Positions 30,584-60,892 are shown, counted from the stretch's first letter. The stretch is DNA of 64,000 nucleotides from an uncultured Gemmatimonadota bacterium (GCA_951812955.1 OX638340.1:3392001-3456000); one strand, 5' to 3'. The notes: generated by a model not told the origin, from the letters alone. Translations and numbers: made by a program.

Positions 30584-30863
30584 TGTTCTTTCGGACACCC
30601 CGGTTCTCGCTCCTTTGCTTGCGTCATAAGCAGATGTCCGCATGCTAATCGCGTCGTTTTTTCGCGGCGTCGAATAATAACAAAGGGTCTTACGCCGTGT
30701 CAAGTCTGTAATCGCGGAACCAGCGAAATTACTTGACATAACGGCTAAAATAGCATAGTTTTATAGACTGAAATACCTTAGAGAATTCTGCTCATGTTGC
30801 ACAATCTTTGGATTGGTTCACCTGCCTTAGGGACTGGTCCATCTACCTCGTGACGAGTCCGGT

Positions 30864-31133: not shown

Positions 31134-31526
31134 CCTGACACCCCGCAGGATCCGGCCGATCGCCCGACCCATAGGGCACGGCCCGCGACCACTTCAGGAC
31201 TTGCACGATTCATATCGTCCAGTCCTCTGTCCTCAACGATAGCATTAAAATAGTTCGGATGACGCCGCTGGCAAGTGGTCGAGGGTGAATTTCCTTCGAA
31301 GAAACCAGTGTTCCACCAAGCGGCTTAGACGAGTTCGGTACCAGATCCAGCGGTTCTAAATCAGGTCATCCCGGGCAGGTCACCTGTTTGAGCAGGGCGA
31401 GCCTTGACGCTCTCGTCTCCGACGGGTTGAAACCGATGTTATGAGCATGATCTTAAGAAGCAGTTCGATACACAAGGCAGATGCAGTTCAACTTACGCAA
31501 CGCAGCAAAAAGAGAGGAAGTTCGAT

Positions 31527-40085: not shown

Positions 40086-40676
40086 ATGAAGACTTTCCGG
40101 ATCCTCCTTTGCCTCCTGTTCGTTCCCGCGGTCGAGCCGGTTTTGGACCTAGTCCTGGGTCCGGCATCGGTCCTGGGTCCGGCCCCAGTATTGGGTCCGG
40201 TATCGGTCCTGGGTCCGGCCACTGCGCAGGCCCACGTGTTCTATGTGAGTATCGTCCGGGTCAAATGGAACGCGGAGGAAGCGCGTCTCGACGTGACCGT
40301 GCGGATTTTCACGGACGACCTGGAGGAGGCCATCCTGGCGGAAGGCGGCCCGCGACTGCGGCTCTGGACCGACCAGGCACGGGAAGACCGCGACCGGCAC
40401 GTTGCGGACTACCTGCTTTCCAGGATGGCCTTCCGTGTCAACGGCCAAGAGCGCGAGTTGGCCTATACCGGAATGGAGGACGCGCTTGACGCCACGGCCT
40501 GTCTGGTGCAGATTACGAATGTGGACCGGGTGGAAACGATCGAGGTCGAGAACCGGATCCTGATCGATATGTTCGACACACAGGCCAACGTGATGCGGTT
40601 CGAAGTCGGCGGCGAGAAGAAGTACGTAAACCTGGGCAAGGGAACCGTCAAGGGCCTGGTCCGCTTCGGTTCCTGA
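40086..40676 (+). CDS. DUF6702-like secreted protein (HupE-associated). Its signal-peptide region is expanded by 15-nt tandem repeats.
   Basis: HVFYVSIVRVKWN...VRIFTDDLEEAI conserved core. A GP(x)SVLGPA repeat run lies at about 40140-40210. The start is the Met of MKTFRILL; the track ORF begins at 40053. Confidence 0.5.
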   Translation: MKTFRILLCLLFVPAVEPVLDLVLGPASVLGPAPVLGPVSVLGPATAQAHVFYVSIVRVKWNAEEARLDVTVRIFTDDLEEAILAEGGPRLRLWTDQAREDRDRHVADYLLSRMAFRVNGQERELAYTGMEDALDATACLVQITNVDRVETIEVENRILIDMFDTQANVMRFEVGGEKKYVNLGKGTVKGLVRFGS

Positions 40677-40729
40677 GGATGTGGCACCGAGCCCTGTCGG
40701 CGGTCCGTCTATGGCGCCGGACGGAGCTC

Positions 40730-40862
40730 GAATGTGACCGATCCGCGTCGCCGGCTGGATCCCGAATGTGACCTATCTGCTGCGACGGCCGAACTTGATG
40801 TGACCGATCCGCGGGGCCGGCCGAATTCGAATGTGACCGGTCCGCGGCGATGGCCAGAATTA
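40730..40862. repeat. Tandem repeat, ~33-34 nt unit in 4 degenerate copies, intergenic upstream of hupE
   Basis: GAATGTGACC(G/T)ATCCGCG... cores begin at 40730, 40764, 40796 and 40829. Confidence 0.7.
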
Positions 40863-40872
40863 TGGCGGGAAG

Positions 40873-41445
40873 ATGTCTGAATTTCAAGTCTATCTGCAAA
40901 TCGGTTTCGACCATATATCGGACCTGAACGCCTACGATCACATCGTTTTCATCATCGCCCTGTGCGCCGCCTATCCGCTGAACCGGTGGCGCTCGGTGCT
41001 TCTGCTCGTTACGGCTTTCACGATCGGGCACTCGATCACCCTGGCGCTGGCCACGATGCGCGTCATACTGGTCCCATCGGACTTGGTCGAGACGCTGATC
41101 CTATTGACGATACTGGCGACCTGCCTGATGAACGTTTACCGGCCGTTCGAGGGCAAAATCGGCCGCAAGACAAGTTACGGACTGGCCCTGTTCTTCGGCC
41201 TGATCCACGGCCTGGGTTTCTCGAACTACCTGAGGGCGCTTCTCGGCATGGAGGAATCGATCATCGTGCCGCTCCTGTCCTTCAACATCGGGCTGGAACT
41301 GGGCCAGTTGATGATCGTGGGGCTCTTCACGGTCGCAGCCTTCGTGTTTCTCAGGGTGCTCGGAACGCCGCACCGACAATGGAACCTGTTCGTATCGGGC
41401 GCGGCCGCAGGTGTTTCAGCCATGTTGCTGTTGGGGGCGGGTTGA
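40873..41445 (+). CDS. HupE/UreJ-family membrane protein (probable Ni/Co transporter)
   Basis: 190 aa, 6 TM. Conserved GHSITLA and HGLGFS motifs. Confidence 0.8.
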   Translation: MSEFQVYLQIGFDHISDLNAYDHIVFIIALCAAYPLNRWRSVLLLVTAFTIGHSITLALATMRVILVPSDLVETLILLTILATCLMNVYRPFEGKIGRKTSYGLALFFGLIHGLGFSNYLRALLGMEESIIVPLLSFNIGLELGQLMIVGLFTVAAFVFLRVLGTPHRQWNLFVSGAAAGVSAMLLLGAG

Positions 41446-41646
41446 AAAGCTGCCGGGGCGGGTTGGCATAGGGGTTGAACATGGCGACGGGACTGGCCTG
41501 ATCCGCGGAGCGGTCGAACTGAACTGGGACAAGTTGTAGAGCTGCCGGGATGAGTTGCGCATGGCGCCGCCCGGGTCGGATCTGCATCGCATCAAGTAAG
41601 CGCTGCATCCGAAAGTCGAATCTCGTGATATGGAGGACGCACCATC

Positions 41647-42075
41647 GTGACGCTGGACACGACGATAGAAGAAGTGCTGGAAGACTTCGAATACCTGGAT
41701 GACTGGGAAGAACGCTACCAGGAAATCATCGACCTGGGCAGGAAGCTGCCGGTCCTGGACGATTCCTACAGGACGGAAGCGTACCGGGTCAAGGGATGCG
41801 TGAGCCAGGTCTGGTTCGTACCCCACGTCGCGGATACCCTGCCGCCCACCATCTCCTTCCAGGCCGACAGCGACGCCCATATAGTCCGCGGCCTCGTGGC
41901 CATCCTGCTCATGGTCTACTCGGGCAAGACCGCGCGCCAGATCCTGGAAGCCGATATCGAAGGCATCTTCAACAGGCTGGACCTCGCGTCCCACCTCAGC
42001 CCAAGCCGAAGCAATGGTTTCCGGTCCATGGTGAAGAAGATCCGGTCCATCGCGGACGCCGCAATGGCAAACTAG
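41647..42075 (+). CDS. sufE: Cysteine desulfuration protein SufE
   Basis: VKGCVSQVWFV... with the active Cys. GGAGG RBS. GTG start. Confidence 0.8.
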   Translation: MTLDTTIEEVLEDFEYLDDWEERYQEIIDLGRKLPVLDDSYRTEAYRVKGCVSQVWFVPHVADTLPPTISFQADSDAHIVRGLVAILLMVYSGKTARQILEADIEGIFNRLDLASHLSPSRSNGFRSMVKKIRSIADAAMAN

Positions 42076-42103
42076 CTCCTACCTGCCTGATCATCCCCTC
42101 ATC

Positions 42104-42262
42104 GGAACCGTCGCGGCCACTGACCACAGGACTCGATCACGGTTCCGTCGCGGCCACATGACTCGGTCACGGTTCCGTCGCGGCCACATGACTCGGGCAA
42201 GGTTTCGTCGCGGCCACAGGACTCGGGCAAGGTTCCATCGTGGCCACTCAACTCGGCCAATT
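42104..42262. repeat. Tandem repeat, 30-nt unit in about 5 copies, between convergent sufE and an aldo/keto reductase
   Basis: GGTTCCGTCGCGGCCACATGACTCGGTCAC-like units begin at 42104, 42141, 42171, 42201 and 42231. Confidence 0.8.
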
Positions 42263-42299
42263 TACAGTATTATCCACTCGACCCTGTCACGGTGCAGTC

Positions 42300-43250
42300 C
42301 TATCCACCCAATTCGGACACGAGCCCATCGAGTTGCGTTCGATGTTCGTCGGACAGTTCCCAACCCACTGAGTCGACGTTCTGCTCGACCTGGGCCGGTC
42401 GCGTTGCACCGCACAGGACCGACGTGATGCCGGGCTGCCGGGACGTCCAGTGGATGACGAGCTGGGCGAGGGATTTGCCATATTCATCCGCGATAGACTT
42501 CATTCGGCCGAGCATGTCGAGGGTTCGGGCCAGTTCCTCCCCCTGGAACCTGGGATCGTCGTTGCGTGAGTCGCCTTCCGGAAACCGGTGGCCCCTTCCG
42601 TATTTGCCTGTCAGCAGGCCCTTGTACAGCGGCCAGTAGGAGATCACCCCGATGTTGTTATCGCGGCAGTGGGGGAGAATCTGAGCCTCGATGTCGCGGA
42701 TGAGCATGTTGTAGGGCGGCTGATCCGAGTGCAGCGGCGCATGGCGTGCGAAGTCCTCCATTTGCGCCACGTCGTAATTGCTTACGCCAATCGCCCGGAT
42801 CTTGCCCTGTTCTTTCAGTTCGGCCAGGGTGACTGCCGTTTCCTCAAAGGGTGTGTTCTCGTCCGGCGCGTGCACCTGGTACAGGTCGATGTAGTCCGTA
42901 TTCAGACGTCGCAGACTCTCCTCGACCTGCTCCAGGACGCGTTTCCTGGAGCTGTCGCGCAGCAGCGTGGTGCCGTCCCAGTACAGTCCGCATTTCGTCG
43001 CAAGGACGATCTCGTCCCGTCGGCCTGAGATAGCCCGGCCTACCAGTCGTTCCGATTCGCCGCTGCGCCCGTACATGTAGGCGGTGTCGATGAGGGTTAT
43101 CCCGCCGTCCATGGCGCTTTCCAGCGCAGCCAGGGACGCGTTGTCGTCGATTCCGGTCCATCCGACGCCGGCCATAGGCCAGCAGCCCATGCCGATGACC
43201 GATACCGACAATCCCGATTCACCGAGCGCTCTGTATTCCATATTCGCCAT
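42300..43250 (-). CDS. Aldo/keto reductase family oxidoreductase
   Basis: MANMEYRALGESGLSVSVIGMGCW... with the AKR catalytic Tyr/Lys context. The track ORF 42300..43571 is an upstream extension. Confidence 0.8.
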   Translation of the reverse strand: MANMEYRALGESGLSVSVIGMGCWPMAGVGWTGIDDNASLAALESAMDGGITLIDTAYMYGRSGESERLVGRAISGRRDEIVLATKCGLYWDGTTLLRDSSRKRVLEQVEESLRRLNTDYIDLYQVHAPDENTPFEETAVTLAELKEQGKIRAIGVSNYDVAQMEDFARHAPLHSDQPPYNMLIRDIEAQILPHCRDNNIGVISYWPLYKGLLTGKYGRGHRFPEGDSRNDDPRFQGEELARTLDMLGRMKSIADEYGKSLAQLVIHWTSRQPGITSVLCGATRPAQVEQNVDSVGWELSDEHRTQLDGLVSELGG

Positions 43251-43411
43251 CCTTTGACGGAAGATCCGGGCACGTTCAGGTCCGTCCGGAGAAGGCCGGC
43301 GGACCGCCCGCGATCGATACGATTTCCAATTGACGAGGTGGGGCGGGAAACATATATTGAATGTAATTACGTGTTCCCGGTACGGTAGAATATACCACGT
43401 AACTTTTAAGC

Positions 43412-43472
43412 ATTCAATCGATATAGACCAGGAAACTGCAGCATAGACCAGGAAACTGCAGTATATACCAGG
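43412..43472. repeat. Tandem repeat, 20-21 nt unit in 3 copies, intergenic
   Basis: ATAGACCAGGAAACTGCAGC occurs twice, followed by a degenerate third copy. Confidence 0.6.
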
Positions 43473-43586
43473 AATAGGCAGTGACCGGCCTTCGGTTGCG
43501 CTCAATCGGTCGACCAGCCGGCAGTTAACTCCGGTAAATCCGAAAAATCTCATAAATCTCATAAATCCCATGGCAGGGAGGTAGAT

Positions 43587-44234
43587 ATGTTGAAAACCGG
43601 TTTAACCCTGATGGTCGCGATGGTTCTTGCGGCGTCTCCGGCAATGGCGGGTTCTCCGACGGTTACCGGCGATTACGTGGAAGTGCGCTCCAACCACATC
43701 CTGGGCGGCGGCTGCACCTATTCGGCGGAAGCCGGCGGCGATGCCAACCAGGCCGTCGTGGCGTGGCGCGTCCGTGACGGAGCGCTGGCCGATCTGTCCG
43801 TCGTTGCCGTCATTCTCGGGAAAGGCAACCTGCAACTCGGTCACCATGCACGCGAAACCGTGCTGCTGATCGACAGCCGGGCCACGCCGACCCAGCGCCA
43901 GGTCTTGAAGAGCACCTTCACGGCACGCTACGGCGAACTTTTCGGTACGGTGAAGACGGTGAAACCCACCGACATTTCCTTCCGCCACGACGGCGGGGAC
44001 ACCTACGCGGTTTCGGTGGACGGCCAGGTTCGCGTTTCTACCCGGACCATGGTTGCGACCGACCATGAGCCCAACTGCGACCGCATGGTTTGGTACGATC
44101 CCTTCACGAAGGACGCGTCGGCTTCGCTGGTCCAGACCGCGGCCCACGCATACAGCGGATCTGACCTGATCGCCACGTGGAGCATCCCGAACAAGCGCAG
44201 CGCTTACGTGGGAACCTTCTCCTTCACGCCGTAA
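43587..44234 (+). CDS. Hypothetical secreted protein
   Basis: Signal peptide MLKTGLTLMVAMVLAASPAMA. Strong RBS GGGAGGTAG. 215 aa. Confidence 0.6.
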   Translation: MLKTGLTLMVAMVLAASPAMAGSPTVTGDYVEVRSNHILGGGCTYSAEAGGDANQAVVAWRVRDGALADLSVVAVILGKGNLQLGHHARETVLLIDSRATPTQRQVLKSTFTARYGELFGTVKTVKPTDISFRHDGGDTYAVSVDGQVRVSTRTMVATDHEPNCDRMVWYDPFTKDASASLVQTAAHAYSGSDLIATWSIPNKRSAYVGTFSFTP

Positions 44235-44377
44235 ACTGAATCGGCGACCATGAACCAAGATAAGAAGCCGGCGAGGCGGTGTTCGTTCGCCGGCTTCTGT
44301 TATTTATCTACTTAGTCTCTTGATATCTATCTACTTAGTCTAAGGACGGAGAGCAGACCACGGCGCTCGGACTCCTA

Positions 44378-45214
44378 TTGCTGATCACCGCGACCGTCGT
44401 TACGTCGTGCTTCGGCCTGATTCTAAAATCCGCCCACCACAACGGACGAAATGCACTGGCGGTGGGCAGCCTGAATTACGGCGCGGGCGCCGTAATCTCC
44501 GGCCTGCTAATGCTCTTTGACACGGGCTGGGTCTGGCACGGGACCACCATACTGATCGGTGCGGCCAGCGGATTCTTCTATTTCGTAGCCTTCCGATTTC
44601 TGATCCAGGCGCTTCTGCAGGGCGGCGTCGCCGTTACCCTGGCGATCGTTCGCCTGTCCGTCCTGATCCCCATCCTCTGTTCCATCGTAATCTGGTATGA
44701 AGTCCCCAATCTGCCGCAGATTGCGGGAATCATCACGGTTTGCCTCGCACTGCCGCTCCTGACACTCGGCGTGGGCAGGCAGTCCGATCTGTCGCTGCGC
44801 GGCGTCGCCTGGCTGGTCGGAGCCCTCTTCATCACCACGGGATTCTGTCACCTGTCACCGAAGGTATTCAGCGAACTCGCGCCGCAGAGCCAGATGTCGC
44901 TCTACCTATTCTCACTCTTTGCCGTATCCGGATTCATGGGGCTGTGCTACATCTGGTACAAACCGATCCGGGTGCGACTGCCAGAAGTGTGGTGGAGCGG
45001 CATACTGGGCGCGTGCAACGTCGCGGGGACCTGGCTCCTCGTTCTCACGCTCAAGTTCCTCCCCGGTACCGTCGTCTTTCCTTTCGTCAGCGCGGTCGGC
45101 CTTGTCATCACCACGCTCGTGGCTATATTGTACTGGAAAGAACAGGTTCGCAGACTCGCCTACGTCGGCATCGGCCTGACCCTGTTAGCGGTCGTCCTTG
45201 TGAACAGCGGCTGA
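44378..45214 (+). CDS. EamA/DMT-superfamily membrane transporter
   Basis: 10-TM hydrophobic profile with a duplicated EamA-like architecture. TTG start. Confidence 0.6.
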   Translation: MLITATVVTSCFGLILKSAHHNGRNALAVGSLNYGAGAVISGLLMLFDTGWVWHGTTILIGAASGFFYFVAFRFLIQALLQGGVAVTLAIVRLSVLIPILCSIVIWYEVPNLPQIAGIITVCLALPLLTLGVGRQSDLSLRGVAWLVGALFITTGFCHLSPKVFSELAPQSQMSLYLFSLFAVSGFMGLCYIWYKPIRVRLPEVWWSGILGACNVAGTWLLVLTLKFLPGTVVFPFVSAVGLVITTLVAILYWKEQVRRLAYVGIGLTLLAVVLVNSG

Positions 45215-45242
45215 GGCAGGCGGCGATCCGTACGACTGACCG

Positions 45243-45345
45243 CGCGTCGGCGGCGAATCCGCGTTGATTACCGAGCGCGTTGGCGGCGAATCCGCGTCGA
45301 TTGGTGAGCGCGTCGGCGGCGAATCCGCGTTGATTTCCGAGCGCG
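45243..45345. repeat. Tandem repeat, 33-nt unit in 3 copies, intergenic upstream of the PfkB-SIS gene
   Basis: CGCGTCGGCGGCGAATCCGCGTTGATTACCGAG units at 45243, 45276 and 45309. An AT-rich promoter-like region follows. Confidence 0.8.
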
Positions 45346-45531
45346 GTCTGCTATATATGTAAAACACAATTTGAATGTTGATTCTTATTTTGATCAATGT
45401 TGACAATATAAAAATCCACGTTTCTAGATAAAGCGGCCACCCGCGTGTTACAACCGCGAGTATCGGGCGCAACTACGCAACACGGAGCGGAAGTACCACT
45501 CCCCCGCGCAGTGCCTTAGAGGTGATATTTC

Positions 45532-47271
45532 GTGATCCTGGACATTGACCGCACAGGCAGGATAGTGGGCATCGGCAGCAACGTCATGGACGTGATCTAT
45601 CGGGTAAACCGAATCGCGGGACCGGAGGAAAAAACCTATATCCTGCCGAATGAACATGGCGCGGTCGTGACCGAGGTAACAGGCGGCGTGACGCTGAACC
45701 ATCTGGCGTGGACGGCCCAGATGGGCGTCCCCGCCGGTCTTTTTGGATTTCAAGGGGACGACCGGTTCGGCGCTATGATCCGGGACGAAATGGACCGCCA
45801 CGGTATCGATCGGTCGGCCGTTCGGGTCCTCGAGGGCCGCGCATCCGGTTTTTCGGTGGTGAACGTGGCCGACGACGCGGACCGGGCAATTTACATGGCC
45901 CGCGCTCTGACGGCGGAGACCTCGGCTGCGGACGTAGAGACGTATTTTGCCGGGTACATTTGTTCCGCCGCGATGGTGACGACGGAAATATCCCAACTCC
46001 CGCTGGACGCCGTTATCGCGGTCCTGCGCATAGCCCGCGAGGCTGGCGTGCCGACCGTGCTGGACGTGGACGTCCCGCCGGAATTCGCCACCGAAGTGGC
46101 CGGACTCGGTTCCGCCGAAGATTTCGAAGAGGCCCTGCGTCTCGCCGACGTCGTGAAACCCGCCAAGGCCGCCGCATCGCAGATAGCAGCAGCCGAGAGT
46201 TCAGAGGAACGGGCCGAGCGTATTTTCAACCGGTACGGCGCCCGGCTGGTGGCCATCACCGAAGGGGCGCAAGGTTCGGTCGTCACCGACGGGAAGCAGA
46301 CGATCCGCACGCCTGCGAAACCCGTGGAAGCCCGGGACACCACCGGCGCGGGAGATGCCTTTCTGGGCGGCCTGATTGCGGGTATATACCACGGATTTGC
46401 GTTACAGGACATCGCATCGCTCGCCAATGCCTGCGGCGCTGTATGTTGCCGCATCCCGGGGGCCTTCCCGCAACTGGGTTCGAGCCGGGACGACGTTATC
46501 AGCCTGTACGAAGGCACTCCGATTCCTGCCGGGACCGCATCGGAATCGGTTGCAGGTCCGGAACCTGGGATCATCCCGGAGTCGGGGATCGTCCCGCAGT
46601 CGGAGATCGTCCCGCAGTCGGGGGTTGTGACCGAAAGCCTTGACGATTCCGGTTCAGCGACCGCGGGTGCAGCCGGCCTGAATGCCGTGCGGCGGACCGC
46701 TGCCGCCCTTTCCGGACTGTATGACGGCATGTCTGACACCTACTTTGACGAAGCCGTCGCGATTATCCGGAAGGCAGAAGCGGCCGGCGGGCGCGTACAC
46801 GTCACCGGTGTGGGGAAGTCCCGGCACATCGGCCACAAGCTGGCGGCCACGCTGCAGAGCACGGGAACGAAGGCGTATTTCCTCGATCCAGTCGACTGCA
46901 ACCACGGAGACAGTGGACAGGTAGCGGAAGGGGACGTGGTCGTCGCCCTGTCTCACAGCGGGGAGACGGAGGAACTGATGGCAGCCGTTGAAACCCTCGC
47001 CGCGATCGGTGCGATACTCATCGCAATCACCGGGCACGCCGCATCCAGTCTGGCCCGTTCGAGTGCGGCGACCCTGCACGTTCCCGTTGACCGCGAAGGC
47101 GGTCCCCTGGGACTCGCGCCGACCGTGAGCACGTCCTGCCAACTCGCCGTGGCCGACGGACTCGCCATGGCCCTGAAGGCCTGCCGTGGGTTTACCCGGG
47201 AAGACTTCGCCCGGTACCATCCCGGCGGGCGTATTGGAAGGCAACTGCGGGACAGTGAAGCCGAAAACTGA
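45532..47271 (+). CDS. Fusion protein: N-terminal PfkB-family carbohydrate kinase plus C-terminal SIS (KpsF/KdsD-like sugar-phosphate isomerase) domain
   Basis: PfkB motif DTTGAGDAF in the N-terminal half. SIS motif VTGVGKSRHIGHKLAATLQSTGT...ALSHSGETEEL in the C-terminal half. The linker carries 15-nt tandem repeats (PESGIVPQSEIVPQSGVV). GTG start with an AGGTGA RBS. Confidence 0.75.
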   Translation: MILDIDRTGRIVGIGSNVMDVIYRVNRIAGPEEKTYILPNEHGAVVTEVTGGVTLNHLAWTAQMGVPAGLFGFQGDDRFGAMIRDEMDRHGIDRSAVRVLEGRASGFSVVNVADDADRAIYMARALTAETSAADVETYFAGYICSAAMVTTEISQLPLDAVIAVLRIAREAGVPTVLDVDVPPEFATEVAGLGSAEDFEEALRLADVVKPAKAAASQIAAAESSEERAERIFNRYGARLVAITEGAQGSVVTDGKQTIRTPAKPVEARDTTGAGDAFLGGLIAGIYHGFALQDIASLANACGAVCCRIPGAFPQLGSSRDDVISLYEGTPIPAGTASESVAGPEPGIIPESGIVPQSEIVPQSGVVTESLDDSGSATAGAAGLNAVRRTAAALSGLYDGMSDTYFDEAVAIIRKAEAAGGRVHVTGVGKSRHIGHKLAATLQSTGTKAYFLDPVDCNHGDSGQVAEGDVVVALSHSGETEELMAAVETLAAIGAILIAITGHAASSLARSSAATLHVPVDREGGPLGLAPTVSTSCQLAVADGLAMALKACRGFTREDFARYHPGGRIGRQLRDSEAEN

Positions 47272-47290
47272 AGGTTCAGGAAGGAACGCC

Positions 47291-48199
47291 ATGATTGCCG
47301 AAGCACCGAAAGCAAATACCGAAACACCCGAAATAAGACTGATCGCTTTCGATCAGGACGATACGGCCCTGCTGCCCGACGGCAAGCCCTCCTCCGAGGG
47401 TTTGGCCGCCATCGAAGCCGCTCTCGACCAGGGACTGATCGTGAGCTCCGTGAGCGGCCGCAACATAGATCGCAGCGGCGAGCCCTTCAGCGGCGCTCGT
47501 CAGCTGTTCGACCGGCTCTACCTGATCGCCAACAACGGCGGGATCATACTCGGGCCAGCCGAAGGGGGCCGAAGACCGCTGCTGTTCGAAAAGCGCATGT
47601 CTACCGGCGCTTTCCTGGACCTGCTCGACTTCATCGAAGAAAACGGTTTCAATTTCGTATACAGCTGGCTGCGCGTGACGGAGGCCGGTCCCCTGGACAG
47701 CGTAATAGCCGACCGGTATACTCCGTCCATCGCAGCCATAGAGGAGCAGAGCCGCGCCGCCGTCGACCGGGACGACGACCTGCTGGCGAAACTGAGACAG
47801 GGCGCATACCCGCCGCCGCCCAAGATGCTGATTCTTCCAGGCCTGGAACGGCGCGAGGCGGTGCTGTCGGAGTTGAAGGCCCGTTTCGACTCCCGTCTCT
47901 ACCTCGTCAAGACGAATCCGGACCGGATCGAAGCCATGCACGCCGACGTCAACAAGAAGGTCGCCGTGGAGTTCATCGCGCGCGAGCACGGAATATCCCT
48001 CAATAACGTGATGGCAGTCGGGGACGGCGACAACGACCTGCCCATGCTCTTCAACGCGGGCCTGGGGGTGATCATGGAAAACGCCCAGGACGCGGTCAAA
48101 GAAGCGGGCCGGGCGCAAGGTCTGGTCATTGCTCCGCCGAACCACGAGAACGGCTTTGCCTGGGCGGTACGTCGATACGCGTTAAACAACGGCCGTTAA
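47291..48199 (+). CDS. Cof-type HAD-IIB phosphatase
   Basis: IAFDQDDT...(DxD motif)...VMAVGDGDNDLPM. RBS AGGAAGG. The track ORF 47186 start is an upstream extension. Confidence 0.8.
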   Translation: MIAEAPKANTETPEIRLIAFDQDDTALLPDGKPSSEGLAAIEAALDQGLIVSSVSGRNIDRSGEPFSGARQLFDRLYLIANNGGIILGPAEGGRRPLLFEKRMSTGAFLDLLDFIEENGFNFVYSWLRVTEAGPLDSVIADRYTPSIAAIEEQSRAAVDRDDDLLAKLRQGAYPPPPKMLILPGLERREAVLSELKARFDSRLYLVKTNPDRIEAMHADVNKKVAVEFIAREHGISLNNVMAVGDGDNDLPMLFNAGLGVIMENAQDAVKEAGRAQGLVIAPPNHENGFAWAVRRYALNNGR

Positions 48200-48325
48200 G
48201 CGGCGACTGTTGAACCGCGACCGTCGAGCGGTAGCTGATGAGCGGGACGCGTCGATTCGTGTAATAACGACGGACGGTGGCCGGCATACCGGACCGTGCC
48301 CGCGGCTCTAACGGAACTCCTCCCC

Positions 48326-50284: not shown

Positions 50285-50424
50285 TCAGCCAGCGCTGCCG
50301 GCAAGGCAACCAGCCCGGCCGGACACCGGCGAGTCCGGCAATCAGCGCGTCCGAAAATCGGTGTGTCCGAATACGTGAGCCTGCGCGGCCGGAATTCAGC
50401 GCGTCCCGGATCGCACCGGCGCGG

Positions 50425-52458
50425 TCAGGAAGCCGGCCGATTGCGGTAGTAAAGGTAGGATACGGCGGTGAGGATAGCGCTCAGGGCGAGGAAGCCGATG
50501 ATGCGATACAGCGTGTCCAGCATCATGAGGTCGAAGACGAAGGCTTTCACCACGGTGCATCCGAAGTAGACGATGGCCGCGGCGCGAAGTGCCCGGATAT
50601 CCAGCAAACGCCCGAGGAGCATGACGAGGGTCGCGCCAATCAGCCAAACGCCCGAAACGGCCAGCTGGCGCAAGTTTTCCAATTGATTCAGCGAACCATC
50701 CCCAAGTGTGATGATCCGGTACTGGAAATAGCTCAGGATTTCCACCGTACCCCAGACCAGGAGAAGAAACGACCAGGCCACGTGAAAGATCGAAAACAGC
50801 ACGCGGTCACGCCTCGTTTCGTCGCTCCTCGTTTCCTCGCTCCTCGTTTCGTCGCTCCCTGTTTCCTCGCTCCTCGTTTCATCGCGGCCCTGCAGCATGC
50901 CGGCGCAGACAAGCAGCAGTCCTCCCACCACCCAGTAAGCACCGGTGCGCAACGATAGAATCGGCACATAAGCAGAAACGAGGTTGGACACGATCGTCCC
51001 GCCGTGGAGGAATATCGCTACGAACGAAAGGGCAGCCAGTGCCGTCCCGGCGTGACGGACCGGTCGCGTGCCGTAGTGGACACCAAACCAGAACAACGCG
51101 AAGGCTTCGAGGGCCCAGGCAATGATCACGCCGTAACTGAAGAAAAAGCTTATCGGTGCGAGCACCGCAAGCAGCACGGCTACCGTCGCGTGCTCCGCGG
51201 CCGCGGGCCGGTCATCGGTTCGCCGGACAATCCACGCCGTGAGCCCGAAGTACACCAGCGATAGGACCGCGGTCGCGACACCCCCGGAATAGTCCGCAGC
51301 GTGCTGCTCGTACTGAAACTGGACGCCGAAAAAGTCCCACAGGCCTTCCGTGTGCCACGTAAGGCGCATGAGCATCACGTAGTAGCCCAGTACGTTGATC
51401 GCTATTGCCGCCCGCCGCCACCACCTGTTCCCCGGGTCGCCCGTGACCGAGCGCAAGAGGTTCGTCCCCGCAAACAGCATCCACCAAAGCGTCAAAAAGG
51501 CCAGGGCGGTTCCGAGACCTTCGGGCAGGTCCGCCCGGAACGACCAGGTCAGGTAGATTCCGTAAGTGGCCGCGACAGCCAGCAGTTCGAGCAGCCGCCA
51601 TCTGCGCCGCCTCACCAGGATGGCGATCAGGCCGGCGTCGAGCAGCGTAAGGTATACGAAGAGACCGAGGGTGTTCAGTTCGGCCGTGACGAGGAGGAGG
51701 GGGGTCAGGAATCCGCCGGCCCATCCCAGCAGGGCGATGGCCCGCGCGTCGTAGTACAGGGAAATCAGCAGGGCGGCGGCCGTTACCAGGGTCATGAGGA
51801 AAAAGGCGACGGGCTGCGGCACAAGATGGTAGAAGTCGAAAGCTGCGTAGATCGACAGGTATAGAATCGCCACGCCCGCGCCGGTCAGCCCATGGGAGAA
51901 AACGGACATTTGACGCCGATGGAATCGGTAGCCACCGGCGATCAGCAACATGCCGGCCGCTCCGCCCAGGATCACGCGCGCGGTTTCATTCAACCAGTCG
52001 TTGTCGAAAGCATATTTCAGGAAGAATCCCGCGGCGAGAATGAGCGCCAGGGCGCCCGCACGGTTCAACAGCTTGCCGCCGAAAAGAATCTCCCACTCTT
52101 CTCGGGTGCGTGGCCGCAGCATGTGGGCAACCCGGCCGGGCGTTCGATGCGGTACGGGTTCACTCGCCAGTGCCCCTCCCGCCAGTGCCCCTCCCGCCAG
52201 TGCCCCTCCCGCTAGTGCCCCTCCCGCCGCCGGAGATTCCTCCGTTGTTTCTTCTATCGTTTCTTTTGCCGTTTCCTTCGTGGTCTCTTCCGTTTCTTCT
52301 GTCGTCTCCTCAACTCCCCGTCCGGCTGGCGCCGTACCGGTTGTCCCGGTCTTCCGTCTTATGACCTCCTCGAGTTTCCGGACTCGTCCCGATAGAGACA
52401 GGTACGTCCCGACGAGGAAAAGGATTAGCAAGATGTTGAAAACGATCAGTAGTTCCAT
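50425..52458 (-). CDS. DUF2339-domain polytopic membrane protein
   Basis: 677 aa with many TM helices. An N-terminal coiled/low-complexity region carries in-frame 15-nt tandem repeats (GGALA in 4 copies, EETTE-like repeats). Confidence 0.65.
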   Translation of the reverse strand: MELLIVFNILLILFLVGTYLSLSGRVRKLEEVIRRKTGTTGTAPAGRGVEETTEETEETTKETAKETIEETTEESPAAGGALAGGALAGGALAGGALASEPVPHRTPGRVAHMLRPRTREEWEILFGGKLLNRAGALALILAAGFFLKYAFDNDWLNETARVILGGAAGMLLIAGGYRFHRRQMSVFSHGLTGAGVAILYLSIYAAFDFYHLVPQPVAFFLMTLVTAAALLISLYYDARAIALLGWAGGFLTPLLLVTAELNTLGLFVYLTLLDAGLIAILVRRRRWRLLELLAVAATYGIYLTWSFRADLPEGLGTALAFLTLWWMLFAGTNLLRSVTGDPGNRWWRRAAIAINVLGYYVMLMRLTWHTEGLWDFFGVQFQYEQHAADYSGGVATAVLSLVYFGLTAWIVRRTDDRPAAAEHATVAVLLAVLAPISFFFSYGVIIAWALEAFALFWFGVHYGTRPVRHAGTALAALSFVAIFLHGGTIVSNLVSAYVPILSLRTGAYWVVGGLLLVCAGMLQGRDETRSEETGSDETRSEETRSDETRRDRVLFSIFHVAWSFLLLVWGTVEILSYFQYRIITLGDGSLNQLENLRQLAVSGVWLIGATLVMLLGRLLDIRALRAAAIVYFGCTVVKAFVFDLMMLDTLYRIIGFLALSAILTAVSYLYYRNRPAS

Positions 52459-52684
52459 GATCGTGCATACTAAGCCCCCCGAAGGCGCCGTGTCAAGTTA
52501 CTCCTCCGGTCTCGAGATCCTGGCGGCGGTGTGATCACATCTCTGGAGAATCCGGGATCGTTGACATGGTTCATACAGCCGTCTATATTCCGTTCGCTTG
52601 CCGATACACACCTTAGTGAACAAGCGAAAGTGAATAAGCGGATCCTTCGCGGAATCGAATTCAATAAGTTTCAGAGAGGAGCCT

Positions 52685-53776
52685 TTGATGTCCACGGTCT
52701 ATCGCGTCGGCATAATCGGGTGCGGCAGCATCTCGCACCTCCACATGAAGGGATACCTGGGCGAAGAGCGGTTCGAGGTCGTCGCACTATCGGACCCGGT
52801 TGCCGAGGCCAGGAAGGATTTCGGTGACCGCTACGGAATCGAAAAACGCTATGCCGATGTCCGTGAGATGATGGACACCGAGGGCCTGGACGTCGTCAGC
52901 ATCTGCACCTGGCACAAGCTGCACGCCCCCCTGACCATCGCCGCCTGCGCGCGTCGGCCGAAGGCCATCCTGTGCGAGAAGCCCATGGCCGTCAACATGG
53001 GGGAGTGCGACGAGATGATGATCGCGGCGCGGCGGAACGACGTGAAGCTCGCCATCGCCCACCAGCGCCGTTTCAATCCGGTCTGGACCGACGCCCGGAA
53101 CCTGGTGGCGGAAGGGGCGATCGGCGACGTGCGCCACGTCCACTGCAGTGGCAGCCAGGGCCTGCTGAACGACTGCTCCCACATGTTCGATTTCATGCGC
53201 TACGTCCTGGGCGATCCCGCGCCGGAGTGGGTGATGGGGAACATCGAACGCAAGACCGACCGGTACGAGCGGGATATCCGCATCGAGGACCGCAGCGCGG
53301 GAATCGTGGGCTTTGACAACGGCGCCGTGGGACAACTCCTGCAGGAGCTTCATCCGGAACGCCGCCAGGGCGGTTACCTCTACGGAACTGACGGCATGAT
53401 GGACGTGAACGAGCAGCGCGTTCTGCTTATCAATTCGAAGACCGGCGGCTGGGAGGAACGGCCGTCCACCGGCGAGGATCCGAGTGTGGGCCAGGCCGTG
53501 GAACTGGCTGACTGGATCGAAGGCAAGTCGGAACACCGGGGAGAGGCCTCGAACGGCCGGGCTGCCGTGGAGATCATCATGGGGATCTACGAGTCGGCGC
53601 GGCTTCACGAGGTCGTCCAGATGCCCGTGCGCACCCACAGTTCGCCCATCGAGGAAATGCTCGAGGCTGGCGACCTGCCCGTGGAACGCCCCGGCCGGTA
53701 CGACATTCGCGCCTTCCTCCTGCGCGGGGAGTCCATGCAGGGTGAGGAGCCGGACGAAGAAGATGAGGAAGAATGA
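52685..53776 (+). CDS. Gfo/Idh/MocA-family oxidoreductase
   Basis: RVGIIGCGSISHLHMKGY Rossmann N-terminus and an acidic C-terminal tail. Confidence 0.8.
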   Translation: MMSTVYRVGIIGCGSISHLHMKGYLGEERFEVVALSDPVAEARKDFGDRYGIEKRYADVREMMDTEGLDVVSICTWHKLHAPLTIAACARRPKAILCEKPMAVNMGECDEMMIAARRNDVKLAIAHQRRFNPVWTDARNLVAEGAIGDVRHVHCSGSQGLLNDCSHMFDFMRYVLGDPAPEWVMGNIERKTDRYERDIRIEDRSAGIVGFDNGAVGQLLQELHPERRQGGYLYGTDGMMDVNEQRVLLINSKTGGWEERPSTGEDPSVGQAVELADWIEGKSEHRGEASNGRAAVEIIMGIYESARLHEVVQMPVRTHSSPIEEMLEAGDLPVERPGRYDIRAFLLRGESMQGEEPDEEDEEE

Positions 53777-53789
53777 CCGGTCACGGTCC

Positions 53790-53868
53790 CGTGACCACGC
53801 TCAGACCGACGAGACCCGCGACCACGCTCAGACCGACGAGGCCCGTGACCACGCTCAGCAGGGCGAAG
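53790..53868. repeat. Tandem repeat, 27-nt unit in 3 copies, intergenic
   Basis: CGTGACCACGCTCAGACCGACGAGACC-like units at 53790, 53817 and 53844. Confidence 0.75.
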
Positions 53869-53930
53869 TTCGATCCGAGGCGGATATCGGCGGAGCAGGC
53901 GACGGTGCACAGATCGGCGAAGCACGCAAA

Positions 53931-54929
53931 ATGGCGGAGATCGGCCGAACGGGGTTGATGGTCAGCCGCCTGGGTCTGGGCGGCGCACCGCTGGCCGGTC
54001 TGTACCAGGGGGTTTCCGACGAGCAGGCCTCCCGGGTTGTGAACACCTACCTCGATCACGGCCCCGGATTTATCGACACGGCCCCGCTCTACGGCAGCGG
54101 CGTGAGCGAGACAAGGTTGGGCGCCGTACTATCGGAGCGAGTCCGCAATGCGCGCGTATTCTGCGACGGTCGCGGTTCCTTTGTGCTCGCCACCAAGGTG
54201 GGCCGCCTCCTCGTGCCCGACCCGGCGCGGGACCAGGACGTGTGGTCTGAGGATCTCCCGCCCGTCGGCCCCGTCTTCGACTACAGCTACGACGGCACGC
54301 TACGGTCTCTCGATGAGAGTCTCGCTCGCCTTGGCCTGGATAAGGTGGATATCCTCCATATCCACGACCCGGACAACCACTACGATGAGGCGATGAGGGG
54401 CAGCTACCGGGCGCTCGTAAGAATGCGCGACGAGGGAGTCATCCGGGCGGTCGGCGTTGGCATGAACCAGGCGAAAATGCTGGCCCGTTTTTCCCAGGAA
54501 GGTGACTTCGACTGTTTTCTTTGTGCGGGCAGATACACCCTGGTGGACCACACGGCGCTCAAGCGGCTGCTGCCCCTGTGCGAAGAACGCAAGATCAGCC
54601 TCATTATCGGCGGGCCCTACAACAGCGGCATCCTGGCGCAGGGCGCTGTGGAAGGGGCGAAGTTCGATTACCGGAAAGCACCGCCCGGGATCGTGGAGCG
54701 GGTTCGTCGCGTCGAAACGGTGTGCGGCCGCCACGGCACGCCCCTGAAGGCGGCGGCGCTGCAGTTCCCCCTGGCCCATCCAGCGGTGGCAGCGGTCATT
54801 CCGGGTGCGCGTTCGCCTGAGGAAGTGGATGAGAACGTGGCGATGGCGGAGTTTGAGATTCCGGCGGATTTCTGGGCGGAACTTCGACAGGAAGGGTTGA
54901 TCCCTGACGAGGCGCCCACGCCCGGATAG
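53931..54929 (+). CDS. Aldo/keto reductase family oxidoreductase
   Basis: MAEIGRTGLMVSRLGLGGAPL... N-terminus. The track ORF 53484 start is a long Arg-rich spurious extension. Confidence 0.8.
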   Translation: MAEIGRTGLMVSRLGLGGAPLAGLYQGVSDEQASRVVNTYLDHGPGFIDTAPLYGSGVSETRLGAVLSERVRNARVFCDGRGSFVLATKVGRLLVPDPARDQDVWSEDLPPVGPVFDYSYDGTLRSLDESLARLGLDKVDILHIHDPDNHYDEAMRGSYRALVRMRDEGVIRAVGVGMNQAKMLARFSQEGDFDCFLCAGRYTLVDHTALKRLLPLCEERKISLIIGGPYNSGILAQGAVEGAKFDYRKAPPGIVERVRRVETVCGRHGTPLKAAALQFPLAHPAVAAVIPGARSPEEVDENVAMAEFEIPADFWAELRQEGLIPDEAPTPG

Positions 54930-55128
54930 TGAAGTAGGTCGCATGTATATCTAAAAACGCGGAAAAATATATTGTCAATATTGATGAAAATAACAATCAA
55001 CCTATAAATCCGGTTTTGATATATATGAGGGACGCCCCTCGCCACGGTCCGCTGCCGGTAGTGTGCGCCTCGCGCCCGGCTGGCTCCGTGCCCCTCAGTC
55101 CGCGAAACGCACTTGAAAGGAGATCCCA

Positions 55129-55485
55129 ATGACCGCATCTGAGAACGCATCTGAAGCCACTCCCCAACGCTATGGCATGGTCCTCAAGGTCAAGCCTGAC
55201 CGGATCGAGGAATACAAGGCATACCACGCCGAGGTCTGGCCCGGCGTTGCGAAGAGGATCACGGAAAGCAACATCACCAACTACTCCATCTATCTGAAGG
55301 ACGATTACCTCTTCTCCTATTTCGAGTACGTCGGGGACGATTTCGAGGCGGACATGGCTAAAATGGCCGCCGACCCGGTCACGCAGGAGTGGTGGGACGT
55401 GATGATGCCGATGCAGGACCCCCTGCCAACGCGGAAGGAAGGCGAATGGTGGGCGAATATGGAGGAAGTCTTTCACCAGGATTGA
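55129..55485 (+). CDS. rhaM: L-rhamnose mutarotase (RhaM/DUF718 family)
   Basis: MVLKVKPDRIEEYKAYHAEVWPGV...YSIYL...EWWDVMMPMQ. RBS AAAGGAGA. Confidence 0.75.
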   Translation: MTASENASEATPQRYGMVLKVKPDRIEEYKAYHAEVWPGVAKRITESNITNYSIYLKDDYLFSYFEYVGDDFEADMAKMAADPVTQEWWDVMMPMQDPLPTRKEGEWWANMEEVFHQD

Positions 55486-55778
55486 GTACAAACACTTCCC
55501 AGACGGACTTTCATATGTTCGTTCGTCTTAGACCGTTGCCAATGAACCGATTGTCGATTATGTTTTCGGGTACTACCCATCCGGTATTGTTTGAGAAATA
55601 ACAGTCCGGTATTGTGCGAGTACTACTCATCCGGCATCGTGCGAGTAATTCTTTTCAGGTATTGAATGAACGCACCAATGATAAGGTTTGAGAAAAGTTA
55701 ATGATGAGATTAAAGAAGAGTTTTAAAAGAAAACTCAGGATATCATAGGAAAACATAGGAGAACATAGGAGAACGTCC

Positions 55779-56672
55779 ATGGCCCTGACTGAAGCGCAAC
55801 TGGCTGAATTCCACGACCGCGGATTGGTGGTCGTGGAAGACGTGCTGGCCGACGCCGATCTCGATCCCGTGATCGACGCGATGACGGAGTATGTCGACCT
55901 GCAGGCACGGAAACTGCAGGCCGAGGGCAAGATCGCCGACCTGCATGAAGACGAACCCTTCCTGACACGATACGCCCGGTTGTTCGCCCAAAGCACGGAG
56001 ATCGGCCACGGGATGGATATCTACGACCTGCGGGCGAAGGCGGTCTTCGATTTCCTGCGGAACGACAACCTGCTCGACGCCGTGGAATCCCTGGTGGGAT
56101 CCGAAATCACCTGCTCGCCGATCCAGCACCTGCGGGCCAAGCCGCCGTCCCGCCTTGACGCCAGCCCGTCCTATAACGTGCCCTGGCACCAGGATTCCGG
56201 GGTGAGCTGGGCGGAGTCCGACAAGACCCTGGCGCTGACCTGCTGGCTGCCCCTCGTGGACGCCACGGTGGAGCGGGGCTGCCTGGAGGTGATCCCGGAC
56301 GTGATCAAGGTCGGCCATCTCGACCACGTGTCGGACGCCGGAACGCGTATAAAACCGGACCTCATGCCCGAGACCGAAGCGCTACCGGCTGAAGTGCGCA
56401 AGGGCGGGGTCGTTTTCCTGAGCCAGTATACACCGCACCGTTCGACGCCCAACCTGACGCAGTGGGATGTGCGCTGGAGCCTTGACCTGCGGTACGTGGC
56501 CTACGGTGAGCCGACTGGGCGGCCCTTCTTTCCCGATTTCTGCGTGCGGAGCCGCACCCATCCTGAACGGGTCCTGACCGATCACCAGGTCTGGGCCGAC
56601 AGCTGGGTCGCGGCCCTTGAGGAACAAATACGCAATCCCAAGCAGGCCCACCGTGTCGCCCAGGAACCCTGA
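55779..56672 (+). CDS. PhyH-family Fe(II)/2-oxoglutarate dioxygenase, paralog 4
   Basis: EFHDRGLVVVEDVL... and the PWHQD iron motif. Confidence 0.8.
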   Translation: MALTEAQLAEFHDRGLVVVEDVLADADLDPVIDAMTEYVDLQARKLQAEGKIADLHEDEPFLTRYARLFAQSTEIGHGMDIYDLRAKAVFDFLRNDNLLDAVESLVGSEITCSPIQHLRAKPPSRLDASPSYNVPWHQDSGVSWAESDKTLALTCWLPLVDATVERGCLEVIPDVIKVGHLDHVSDAGTRIKPDLMPETEALPAEVRKGGVVFLSQYTPHRSTPNLTQWDVRWSLDLRYVAYGEPTGRPFFPDFCVRSRTHPERVLTDHQVWADSWVAALEEQIRNPKQAHRVAQEP

Positions 56673-56940
56673 GGACACCTGATCCAAGAGGCACACCATG
56701 CTTTGAGGCCTGACCTCAGGCGCCAGGTTCGGCGCCCTTCTCGGCAGTCTGATCATTCCCGGTCTGGGACAGTTGTACCAGGGTCGCAGGCCGGCCGCGG
56801 TCATACACTTCATCCTCGCGGTCGTGATCTGGTTGATCGGCTACGGCTGGATCGTTCATCTGTATTCCGCGGTCGACGCGGCATTTCAGGCACCGCGCGG
56901 CGAAGGCTGCAAAACGTAAACCTTACAGTCCTGGTTACGG

Positions 56941-57056
56941 TGAACGCATCGGCGCCCGCCGGCAGGGGTGCGCGTCTCTGATCGCATCGGCGCCCGCTGG
57001 CAGGTGCGCGTCTATGAACGCATCGGTGCTCGCCGGCAGGGGTGCACGTCTGCGAA
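56941..57056. repeat. Tandem repeat, ~37-nt unit in 3 copies, intergenic upstream of the NHL-repeat gene
   Basis: GAACGCATCGGCGCCCGCCGGCAGGGGTGCGCGTCT-like units at 56941, 56979 and 57015. Confidence 0.75.
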
Positions 57057-57098
57057 CCATAAACCAGACAAACCACATTCAACAGGAAGAGGTCATGC

Positions 57099-57965
57099 AT
57101 GAGTTTCGGTAACGGGGCCTACAGGTACGAGGTGCAGGAAAACTGGTGGAAGCTTCCTGAAGGGTGGTCCTTCGGATGGATAACCGGAGTCGCCTGCGAT
57201 TCAAAGGACCAGGTGTACGTCTATTCCCGAAGCGAGCATCCCCTGGTGGTCTTCGACCGCGACGGAACGTTTGTCAAGACCATCGGCGACGGCATACTGA
57301 AGGACGCTCATGGTATATACATCGACGGAGAGGACAACATCTTCCTGGTCGACTGGCTGGACCACTGCGTCCGCAAGTTCGACGCGGACGGGAACCAGGT
57401 CCTGGTGATTGGCACGCCCGGTGTTCCGAGCGACAACGACGGTGATCCTTTCCGCAAGCCGACGGAAGCGGTCGTCGCGCCGAACGGAGATATCTACGTG
57501 TCCGACGGGTACGACAACGCCCGGGTACACCGGTACGACGCCGAAGGGAACCACATCCACTCCTGGGGCAGCTGGGGTGACGGCCCCTCCCAGTTCGCGC
57601 TGAGCCACTGCGTCCGCATTGACCGGCATGACCGGCTGTGGGTGTGTGATCGTGAAAACCAGCGCATCCAGCTATTCGACCTGGAAGGCAAGTTTATCGA
57701 GGAGCGACACGTTCCTGGCAAACCCGACACCGTCTACTTTGATCCGGTAGAAGATATAGCGTACGTGGCCGAGCTGGAACAACAGGTGGGTATCTACACC
57801 CTGGACGGCGACCTGGTCAGCAGCTGGGGCGGCGGTAAGCGGAGCGATCGGCCGGGCGAATTCGCCGGCTGTCCCCACGGCATCTGGATGGACTCCCACG
57901 GCGACCTCTATGTCGGCGAAGTTCAGGCCGACGCCAGGCTGCAGAAGTTCGTGAGATCGAGGTAA
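57099..57965 (+). CDS. NHL-repeat beta-propeller protein
   Basis: Repeated ...G.F..P.G.A.D..G..YV.D..N.R...D motifs over 288 aa. Confidence 0.75.
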   Translation: MSFGNGAYRYEVQENWWKLPEGWSFGWITGVACDSKDQVYVYSRSEHPLVVFDRDGTFVKTIGDGILKDAHGIYIDGEDNIFLVDWLDHCVRKFDADGNQVLVIGTPGVPSDNDGDPFRKPTEAVVAPNGDIYVSDGYDNARVHRYDAEGNHIHSWGSWGDGPSQFALSHCVRIDRHDRLWVCDRENQRIQLFDLEGKFIEERHVPGKPDTVYFDPVEDIAYVAELEQQVGIYTLDGDLVSSWGGGKRSDRPGEFAGCPHGIWMDSHGDLYVGEVQADARLQKFVRSR

Positions 57966-58070
57966 TTAGGCAATCGAGGACACTCGGCGACCGAGGTAAT
58001 CCGGCAATCGAGGACACTCGGCGATCGAGGTAATTCGGCAATCGAGGACACTCGGCGACCGAAGTAATAC
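57955..58070. repeat. Tandem repeat, 33-nt unit in about 3.3 copies, beginning at the NHL gene stop codon
   Basis: CGAGGTAAT(T/C)(A/C)GGCAATCGAGGACACTCGGCGAC units at about 57960, 57993 and 58026. Confidence 0.8.
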
Positions 58071-58210
58071 GTGCGATCGGGGGAATACGCAGTACGGTTC
58101 CGGTCGACGAGTCCTCAGGTCCTACAGATTCCCTTCTGGCCCTGCAATTCCACGTAGCAGATCCCTTCTAGGTTTAGACCAGGATTCACCAAAACCTCCG
58201 GCTGCTGGAA

Positions 58211-60613: not shown

Positions 60614-60892
60614 AGAGTGGATTTTCGACGAACTGAAGTGTGAATTACCGACAACGTAATGTGTGGATTTACGACGGAACGCACTTCTTTGAATACGATC
60701 AGTCCATTACGGCATCGGGCCGCTCCTCCTGACCTGTCGATGCACCTTTCCTGCTGGAAGCTATTTCACCGGTAATTGTCTTTCCATGTGGCCCCCTCAC
60801 TTTCTCCTTGATAATATCCCTGCCGTTTCATCATTTTAGCTATTCGTTTTTGACACTCCATTGATACTCCTGACTCCAGTATAGGGGCGTTC

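Follow-up and report, generated by a model that had tools for sequence, protein, structure and literature searches.

What makes a stretch of bacterial chromosome accumulate many short tandem arrays that share no sequence with one another? The question is raised by 64,000 nucleotides of DNA from an uncultured Gemmatimonadota bacterium (GCA_951812955.1 OX638340.1:3392001-3456000), the whole of which is referred to below as the window. A sequence-only reading had listed seven minisatellites between positions 40730 and 58070, regarded their density as atypical, and offered two accounts of them: a slippage or recombination property of the lineage, or repeated regulatory sites. The answer favored here, with a probability of roughly 0.75, is that the arrays are fixed and mostly neutral products of microhomology-mediated tandem duplication and slippage, filtered by selection.

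Tandem Repeats Finder (TRF), applied to the entire 64-kb window, recovered all seven arrays with small shifts in coordinates and period, and the gene map places every one of them between genes, as had been claimed. TRF also reported unlisted arrays, both intergenic (at 9260, 20910, 50305, 55570, and 60611) and in frame within genes (at 40152, 46569, 50812, 52165, 59839, and 62108). Genes were called with a self-trained, home-made, and rather crude codon-usage caller, which gave 53 genes and 88% coding DNA in the window. The called genes are backed by Pfam and represent an ordinary mix of metabolic and housekeeping functions, with no mobile or repair genes among the Pfam assignments.

Relatives came from a scan in which each species was represented by one genome and the window's homocysteine-methyltransferase/MTHFR protein served as query, yielding ~20 loci at 82-95% amino-acid identity, all of them syntenic with window 37-63 kb. 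Metagenome-assembled genomes (MAGs) of this clade are labeled Candidatus Latescibacterota or Gemmatimonadetes, include complete chromosomes of ~3.9 Mb, and carry isolate names (APA_bin, IRC1_bin, SB0665_bin, Plut) that suggest an association with sponges and corals. The closest relative, L016, shares ~93% DNA identity with the window. A sister group, at 68-79% amino-acid identity, has a partly shared gene order and a GC content of 52% versus 62% in the clade, and looks free-living and marine. New territory was reached through protein P0001, a protein 96% identical to the window's FAA-hydrolase, by which ten contigs of a single species (98.3-99.1% identity) were obtained that extend ~10 kb past the window's start.

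Under one criterion for all samples (period of at least 15 nt and TRF score of at least 70), the window contains 17 arrays in 64 kb, or 2.7 per 10 kb. The clade loci contain 119 arrays in 430 kb (2.8 per 10 kb) and bring the clade to 136 arrays over 482 kb (2.8 per 10 kb) together with the window; five extra clade loci from metagenomes contain 17 in 32.7 kb (5.2 per 10 kb). Loci from other bacteria are far poorer: 57 loci of other phyla found with the same gene have ten arrays in 1.03 Mb (0.097 per 10 kb), 69 further metagenome loci have four in 0.69 Mb (0.058 per 10 kb), and nine loci found with another gene have none in 119 kb (0 per 10 kb). Of the contigs considered for a comparison with other sponge symbionts, those of P0057 showed no obvious tie to sponges; those reached via P0092, P0081, and P0031, which are array-free, are of unverified habitat and so were counted solely as further controls. 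The density is therefore atypical, as had been supposed, since control loci of other phyla are ~30-fold poorer in arrays and shuffled sequence has none. The sister group is likewise without arrays in 77.9 kb, where ~22 would be expected at the clade rate (calculated Poisson probability ~3e-10), and its intergenic DNA is at least as plentiful as that of the clade. Composition alone is not the cause of the excess, because high-GC controls also lack arrays. A rise in GC content, from ~52% in the sister group (L020, L081, L083, L085, L086, L104, and L119) to ~62% in the clade, accompanies the appearance of arrays.

The excess is confined to longer units. When perfect tandem duplications were counted by unit length in the clade relative to controls, there was no excess at 6-8 nt, ~3x at 9-11 nt, ~5x at 12-14 nt, and 13-28x at 15-19 nt. 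Beyond this range, 14 clade duplications stood against 0-1 in controls at 20-29 nt, and 12 against none at 30-49 nt. Block-shuffled clade sequence gave no perfect duplications with a unit of at least 15 nt, versus 55 observed.

Despite their similar dimensions, the units are unrelated. All-against-all alignments of units scored within the range of shuffled units, in keeping with the earlier statement that no core is shared. Among the 86 clade units that are non-coding (intergenic or straddling), no 5-7-mer is shared by all; the most frequent 6-mers are present in no more than 14% and reflect GC-richness, and restriction or Dam-type 4-mers likewise show general GC-richness only (GATC in 23 of 86). 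Each window unit matches its own site and the orthologous L016 site alone, so that the unit originates in local sequence. CRISPR arrays were rejected as a classification, as copies are contiguous and have no unique spacers, as were dispersed families of the type of repetitive extragenic palindromes (REPs), miniature inverted-repeat transposable elements (MITEs), or mycobacterial interspersed repetitive units (MIRUs), in view of the confinement of each unit to its own site and orthologue.

An origin of the arrays in such a dispersed family, or as terminators or structured RNAs, is therefore scarcely credible, even though the arrays lie between genes and, in co-directional slots, one in three starts at or just past a stop codon. 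Beyond orthologues, no unit has a second site in the window or the clade loci, and a single known repetitive element family behind the arrays is not borne out. With respect to RNA, folding z-scores of 11 arrays scatter from -2.4 to +1.6 with no consistent structure, a scan for terminator and promoter consensus sequences found terminator-like sites at the shuffled level (18 versus 15.2 expected), and Rfam and tRNA scans of the window gave no matches. Intrinsic terminators and structured RNAs were set aside on these same folding, terminator, and Rfam results.

The placement of arrays relative to genes is more informative. Among the 136 clade arrays, 79 are intergenic, 50 are coding, and seven straddle a gene end. 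The period is divisible by three in all 50 coding arrays, while intergenic periods are spread over the three residue classes (30/30/19). Density is 12.6 arrays per 10 kb of intergenic DNA versus 1.19 per 10 kb of coding DNA, yet the coding arrays alone are ~12 times as dense as all arrays in controls. Arrays make up 11% of clade intergenic DNA and occur in 68 of 205 slots of at least 100 nt. By orientation of the flanking genes, convergent slots hold 2.89 arrays per kb, co-directional ones 1.45, and divergent ones 0.79, and 20 of 60 arrays in co-directional slots overlap the upstream stop codon. This is the pattern expected if duplication occurs everywhere and selection then filters the products, and it does not suit promoter elements.

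Placement also bears on whether the arrays are functional, either as repeated regulator-binding sites, the second account in the sequence-only reading, or as contingency loci that tune expression of neighboring genes. Many arrays are situated in divergent slots or no more than 50 nt from a start codon, a 19-nt array that lies upstream of a small gene has been kept in at least eight species, and promoter tandem repeats are known to tune expression in pathogens (discussed in PMC1853098). As a general explanation, however, regulatory sites do not hold up. Arrays are densest in convergent 3'-3' slots, which lack a promoter, and sparsest in divergent promoter slots; in-frame arrays from the same process occur in unrelated housekeeping genes; and a given slot is usually filled in a minority of genomes, often by unrelated sequence. 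Where conserved AT-rich, promoter-like DNA is present, as in the slot at 45242, it adjoins the array and is outside it. Nor is there a shared motif or helical phasing: the suggestion that unit length follows the 10.5-bp helical repeat found no support (Rayleigh p=0.65), and intergenic unit lengths are unphased at 3, 10, 10.5, and 11 nt (Rayleigh p>0.3). Regulator-binding arrays and iterons were rejected on the same grounds of no core motif, no phasing, and lowest density in divergent slots. A functional origin is thus improbable as a rule, although individual arrays may affect their neighboring genes.

Comparison of strains and close relatives reveals that copy number differs at individual arrays, which the earlier reading had thought worth checking. 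Being composed of head-to-tail units of ~10-100 nt in varying copy number, the arrays are variable-number tandem repeats. For example, the 34 nt x4.1 array at 40713-40849, between the stop of a DUF6702 gene (40676) and the start of hupE (40873), has four copies in the window versus ~1.3 in L016; any array at all is present in this slot in only two of 19 genomes, and those two are unrelated. Similarly, the 27 nt x2.6 array at 53788-53858 is represented by one copy in L016. It occupies the slot from the stop of a GFO-type oxidoreductase gene (53776) to the aldo/keto reductase start, which is likely the ATG at 53932 judging from the sequence and Pfam coverage. L016 also has arrays that are absent from the window. 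When six pairs of close genomes were compared, 184 indels of 9-400 nt were counted, of which 82 fall in arrays of the genome with the extra DNA.

Some slots have been filled independently several times. Where sufE (stop at 42075) and an aldo/keto reductase gene (stop at 42300) converge, the window has a 30 nt x4.1 array at 42124-42260, which reaches ~5 copies in total with a diverged first copy from 42104, while L016 has a 37 nt x2.4 version. This slot measures 5-224 nt in most relatives, and unrelated arrays occupy it in the window and L016, in L003, in L006, in L007, and in L010; with intervening non-orthologous genes included, it extends up to 1093 nt and holds five unrelated unit families. 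Of 27 orthologous slots, 20 have an array in at least one genome, usually in a minority of genomes, and a single slot may have up to 5-6 unrelated unit families, or none.

Other arrays have persisted long enough to diverge in concert. A 33-nt array at 45242-45345 begins 28 nt past the EamA stop (45214) and lies upstream of a conserved AT-rich stretch that is followed by the PfkB-SIS start (45532). Its copy number is 3.2 in the window, 3.9 in L016, and 2.4 in L084, and in each of these three genomes every copy carries a genome-specific base, which amounts to concerted evolution. A 19-nt array downstream of the DUF2339 gene is found in eight genomes with 2-8 copies, including three identical copies in L006.

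Variation extends to the strain level. The new territory upstream of the window (~9 kb, one species) has two arrays, and the ten contigs differ in copy number at four slots. These consist of a 19-nt array with four to six or more copies, a 23-nt array with a one-unit difference in one strain, a slot orthologous to window 9260 that ranges from 28 to 113 nt, and a 40-nt duplication, found in five strains but not in two others, that takes in a stop codon and the start codon after it. The 40-nt duplication (L162 and L164-L167, ~4419-4495) includes one gene's stop codon together with the initial 24 nt of the gene that follows. A 9-codon mini-open reading frame (mini-ORF) is thereby generated before the real start, and a few of the junction bases are missing from the single-copy allele. 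Single-copy alleles are available from L161 and L163 at this duplication and from L016 at 40713 and 53788; in each case the change may be either a gain or a loss.

Assembly artefacts need only brief mention. N runs in short-read scaffolds do coincide exactly with some arrays, but the same arrays recur in assemblies made independently, among contig-level MAGs as well as complete chromosomes, and their variants are consistent with phylogeny, which leaves this explanation with next to no weight.

How, then, would the arrays arise? A small sample of 26 strictly two-copy perfect duplications, with units of at least 10 nt, is instructive. Junctions with no microhomology account for 19% of these, versus 54% expected, and junctions with at least 3 nt of microhomology for 38%, versus 6% expected. 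In a preprint (10.64898/2026.02.28.708716), the principal way in which tandem repeats arise is proposed to be microhomology-mediated tandem duplication, whose rate is also reported to go up on loss of the flap nuclease Rad27. On this reading, local single-copy DNA, mostly 15-60 nt in length and up to ~130 nt, would be tandemly duplicated unusually often in the clade, and the few bases of microhomology at the junctions point to the microhomology-mediated route. Once two copies exist, slippage or unequal exchange could expand, contract, and homogenize them into arrays of 2-8 copies, and would by the same means make arrays differ between species and strains. Selection would then act as a filter. 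Inside genes, only in-frame units would survive; between genes, 3' ends and convergent slots would retain arrays best, and divergent promoter regions worst. A duplication that spans a stop codon is presumably tolerated because its first copy still terminates the protein.

The property proposed for the lineage, i.e., one of slippage or recombination, is accordingly well supported. The excess is present in all sampled clade genomes and absent from the sister group and from other phyla, in which arrays are ~30-fold rarer, and further evidence comes from the in-frame-only survival of arrays in coding DNA and from strain-level variation in copy number. What is elevated appears to be the duplication rate itself, beyond mere retention of duplications. 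A raised rate is favored because perfect, young duplications are in excess, strains differ, coding density is ordinary, and the intergenic DNA of the sister group is array-free. The underlying cause is putatively an altered replication or repair function, such as lagging-strand flap processing or single-strand exonucleases.

The contrary view is that duplications occur at an ordinary rate but are weakly purged, as might be expected of a symbiont that is confined to its host, has a small effective population, and lacks any mutator property, so that slightly harmful insertions build up. Clade MAG names do point to sponge and coral hosts where the sister group looks free-living and marine, and the arrays are located where least harm would be expected. 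This view accounts poorly for the ordinary coding density of the clade (87%), for a sister group that is array-free despite at least equal intergenic DNA, and for an excess of at least 13-fold in perfect, and therefore young, duplications. It is further at odds with in-frame genic arrays whose density is ~12 times that of control-genome arrays of every kind, and with several arrays that already differ among strains at 98-99% identity. Weak purging is hence unlikely as the explanation, and possible as a contributor.

A more specific version of the raised-rate reading is that the common ancestor of the clade gained a heritable “tandem-duplication mutator” state that has persisted through speciation and goes on seeding new arrays. 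This is offered tentatively, at somewhat less than even odds. Candidate causes are altered processing of lagging-strand flaps, by way of the DNA polymerase I 5' nuclease or its paralogue, and loss of single-strand exonucleases.

Several points weigh against duplication and slippage, filtered by selection, as a full account. The GC content of arrays is 63%, similar to that of coding DNA, versus 55% in other intergenic DNA. Arrays in co-directional slots show an A>T skew when read along the sense strand of their neighboring genes (38 versus 18 arrays, p ~0.003-0.01), and the model predicts neither feature. The 19-nt array near the DUF2339 gene, in at least eight genomes, may have gained a function. 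A raised rate and reduced purging are not separated directly by these data. The distinct territory sampled is ~85 kb, consisting of the 64-kb window, its orthologues, and ~10 kb upstream, so a genome-wide excess is an extrapolation from ~85 kb; the orthologous loci sample one region and hence are not independent. Lastly, the crudeness of the gene caller must be considered, although Pfam and the 50/50 in-frame result support its calls.

Taken singly, the arrays are ordinary bacterial minisatellites; what is unusual is their clade-wide density, the long-unit spectrum, and their absence from the sister group. The nearest likeness is to the minisatellites of Burkholderia pseudomallei, which are also head-to-tail, mostly intergenic, and variable in copy number among strains, with non-triplet units kept out of genes. 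That species has been called unusually repeat-rich at 0.86 arrays per 10 kb, mostly with 6-9-bp units (PMC1853098). The clade, by comparison, has 2.8 per 10 kb with units of at least 15 nt alone counted and 2-5 copies, shows no excess at 6-8 nt, and has no array with a second site. A likeness of another kind is found in MIRUs, which constitute one sequence family at ~40 loci. According to a passage of PMC3635867, these are located in intergenic regions and between genes of operons, have units of tens of bases, and vary in copy number among strains. Clade arrays differ in being mutually unrelated and born from local sequence.

With respect to mechanism, the clade resembles microhomology-mediated tandem duplication in the progression from a few identical flanking bases to a two-copy duplication to an array. 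The duplications of yeast rad27 mutants, reportedly described by Tishkoff et al. in 1997, resemble the clade's in their 10-130 nt unit range; the rad27-type likeness is one of products, and a corresponding gene defect in the clade is a candidate. Microhomology is found at ~80% of young clade duplications, the same proportion as in the preprint (10.64898/2026.02.28.708716). The process described there is universal and rare, whereas its fixed products in the clade are ~30 times commoner than in other bacteria, and in one clade only. No description of the trait was found in the literature, including a paper on sponge-associated Latescibacterota genomes, in which “repeat” refers to protein domains and CRISPR only.

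Should the excess be genome-wide, the clade would be among the most minisatellite-rich bacteria described, with ~3x the array density of B. pseudomallei and much longer units. Extrapolated from 2.8 per 10 kb, a genome of 3.9 Mb would hold roughly a thousand minisatellites. If the proposed mutator state exists as well, these bacteria would represent a naturally occurring parallel to yeast rad27 mutants, and a symbiont with a standing source of in-frame protein repeats and of variation in untranslated regions. Control of tandem-duplication rates in bacteria has been addressed mainly with laboratory mutants so far; a comparison of replication and repair functions between clade and sister group could reveal a factor that sets them. 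In practical terms, the arrays coincide with scaffold gaps in short-read bins, supply strain markers, and insert in-frame repeats into ordinary proteins. For instance, N runs, which represent scaffold gaps or masking, are located exactly on arrays in the short-read assemblies L070 (~3165-3260) and L160 (~3083-3180, 4370-4460, and 16480-16580), and the arrays probably break up metagenome bins of the clade.

The remaining intergenic arrays of the window are varied in setting. A 20 nt x2.7 array at 43422-43474, also present in L016, lies in the divergent slot between an aldo/keto reductase start (43250) and a DUF1326 start (43587). At 50305-50369, a 32 nt x2.0 duplication occupies the convergent slot of the homocysteine methyltransferase/MTHFR gene and the DUF2339 gene. 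Most relatives (L002-L018, ~11900-12800) have in this interval a small minus-strand gene of 137-298 residues that consists mostly of in-frame repeats of 21-129 nt (75 nt x7.9 in L014); it is absent from the window (50285-50424), L016, L013, and L070.

Farther along, a 25 nt x3.1 array at 55570-55647 is shared with L016 and is followed at 55677-55774 by 23 nt x2 and 10 nt x4.6 repeats, which duplicate the ribosome-binding stretch before the PhyH start (55779). The 10-nt unit, at 55729-55774, contains that stretch (CATAGGAGAA) and is present in ~4.6 copies directly ahead of the start codon. A 36-38 nt x3.0 array at 56941-57051 is located between the stop of a possible small membrane ORF (56919) and the start of the NHL gene (57099). 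This ORF, at 56773-56919, would encode 48 residues from a TTG start; it was not called by the gene caller, and relatives have a gene of 58-65 residues in the same slot.

The 34 nt x3.3 array at 57956-58068, with a 17-nt half period, encodes in its first unit the last codons and stop codon of the NHL gene, and has no match in L016, whose NHL C-terminus differs. It marks one end of ~2.9 kb (57956-60892) without a counterpart in L016 or any other relative. This insertion encodes a hybrid histidine kinase/response regulator (58211-60613; GAF-PAS-HisKA-HATPase-REC-Trans_reg_C), is flanked at both ends by tandem arrays, and alters the NHL C-terminus; relatives lack it, and in these an amidohydrolase gene directly follows the NHL gene. 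Within the insertion, a 23 nt x2.9 array at 60611-60676 begins at the stop codon of the kinase gene, which itself has an in-frame 21 nt x2.6 array on the plus strand at 59839-59893.

The other in-frame arrays show comparable variation. On the plus strand, an 18 nt x3.8 array at 40152-40219 in the N-terminal region of the DUF6702 protein has 3.8 copies in the window, 4.6 in L016, and 6.8 in L084; an 18 nt x2.9 array at 46569-46621 in a linker of the PfkB-SIS protein differs from L016 by an 18-nt indel; and a 27 nt x2.3 array is located at 62108-62168 in an epimerase-family gene. On the minus strand, the gene for the DUF2339 membrane protein has a 15/30-nt array at 50812-50885 and a 15 nt x4.3 array at 52165-52228, with indels of 30 and 45 nt, respectively, relative to L016.

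The first 37 kb of the window, an operon-dense region, has only two arrays at the threshold. Measured over intergenic DNA alone, that comes to a calculated ~6.6 arrays per 10 kb, which differs from the clade mean by less than two-fold. Arrays in this region include a 22 nt x2.6 array at 9260-9315, between two minus-strand genes, that overlaps the start of an enolase-superfamily gene (8065-9273), and a minus-strand 66 nt x3.2 array at 20910-21122 at the 5' end of an rlmN-like gene. As the rlmN-like ORF (19888-21126) is open all through the 66-nt array, the latter may lie upstream of the gene or may code, in frame, for three 22-residue repeats that lengthen the N-terminus. The same region has an interval of 928 nt without a confident gene (30599-31526), which lies upstream of a small protein that looks secreted and of a TonB-dependent receptor; an ABC ATPase ORF upstream of this gap could reach 30739.

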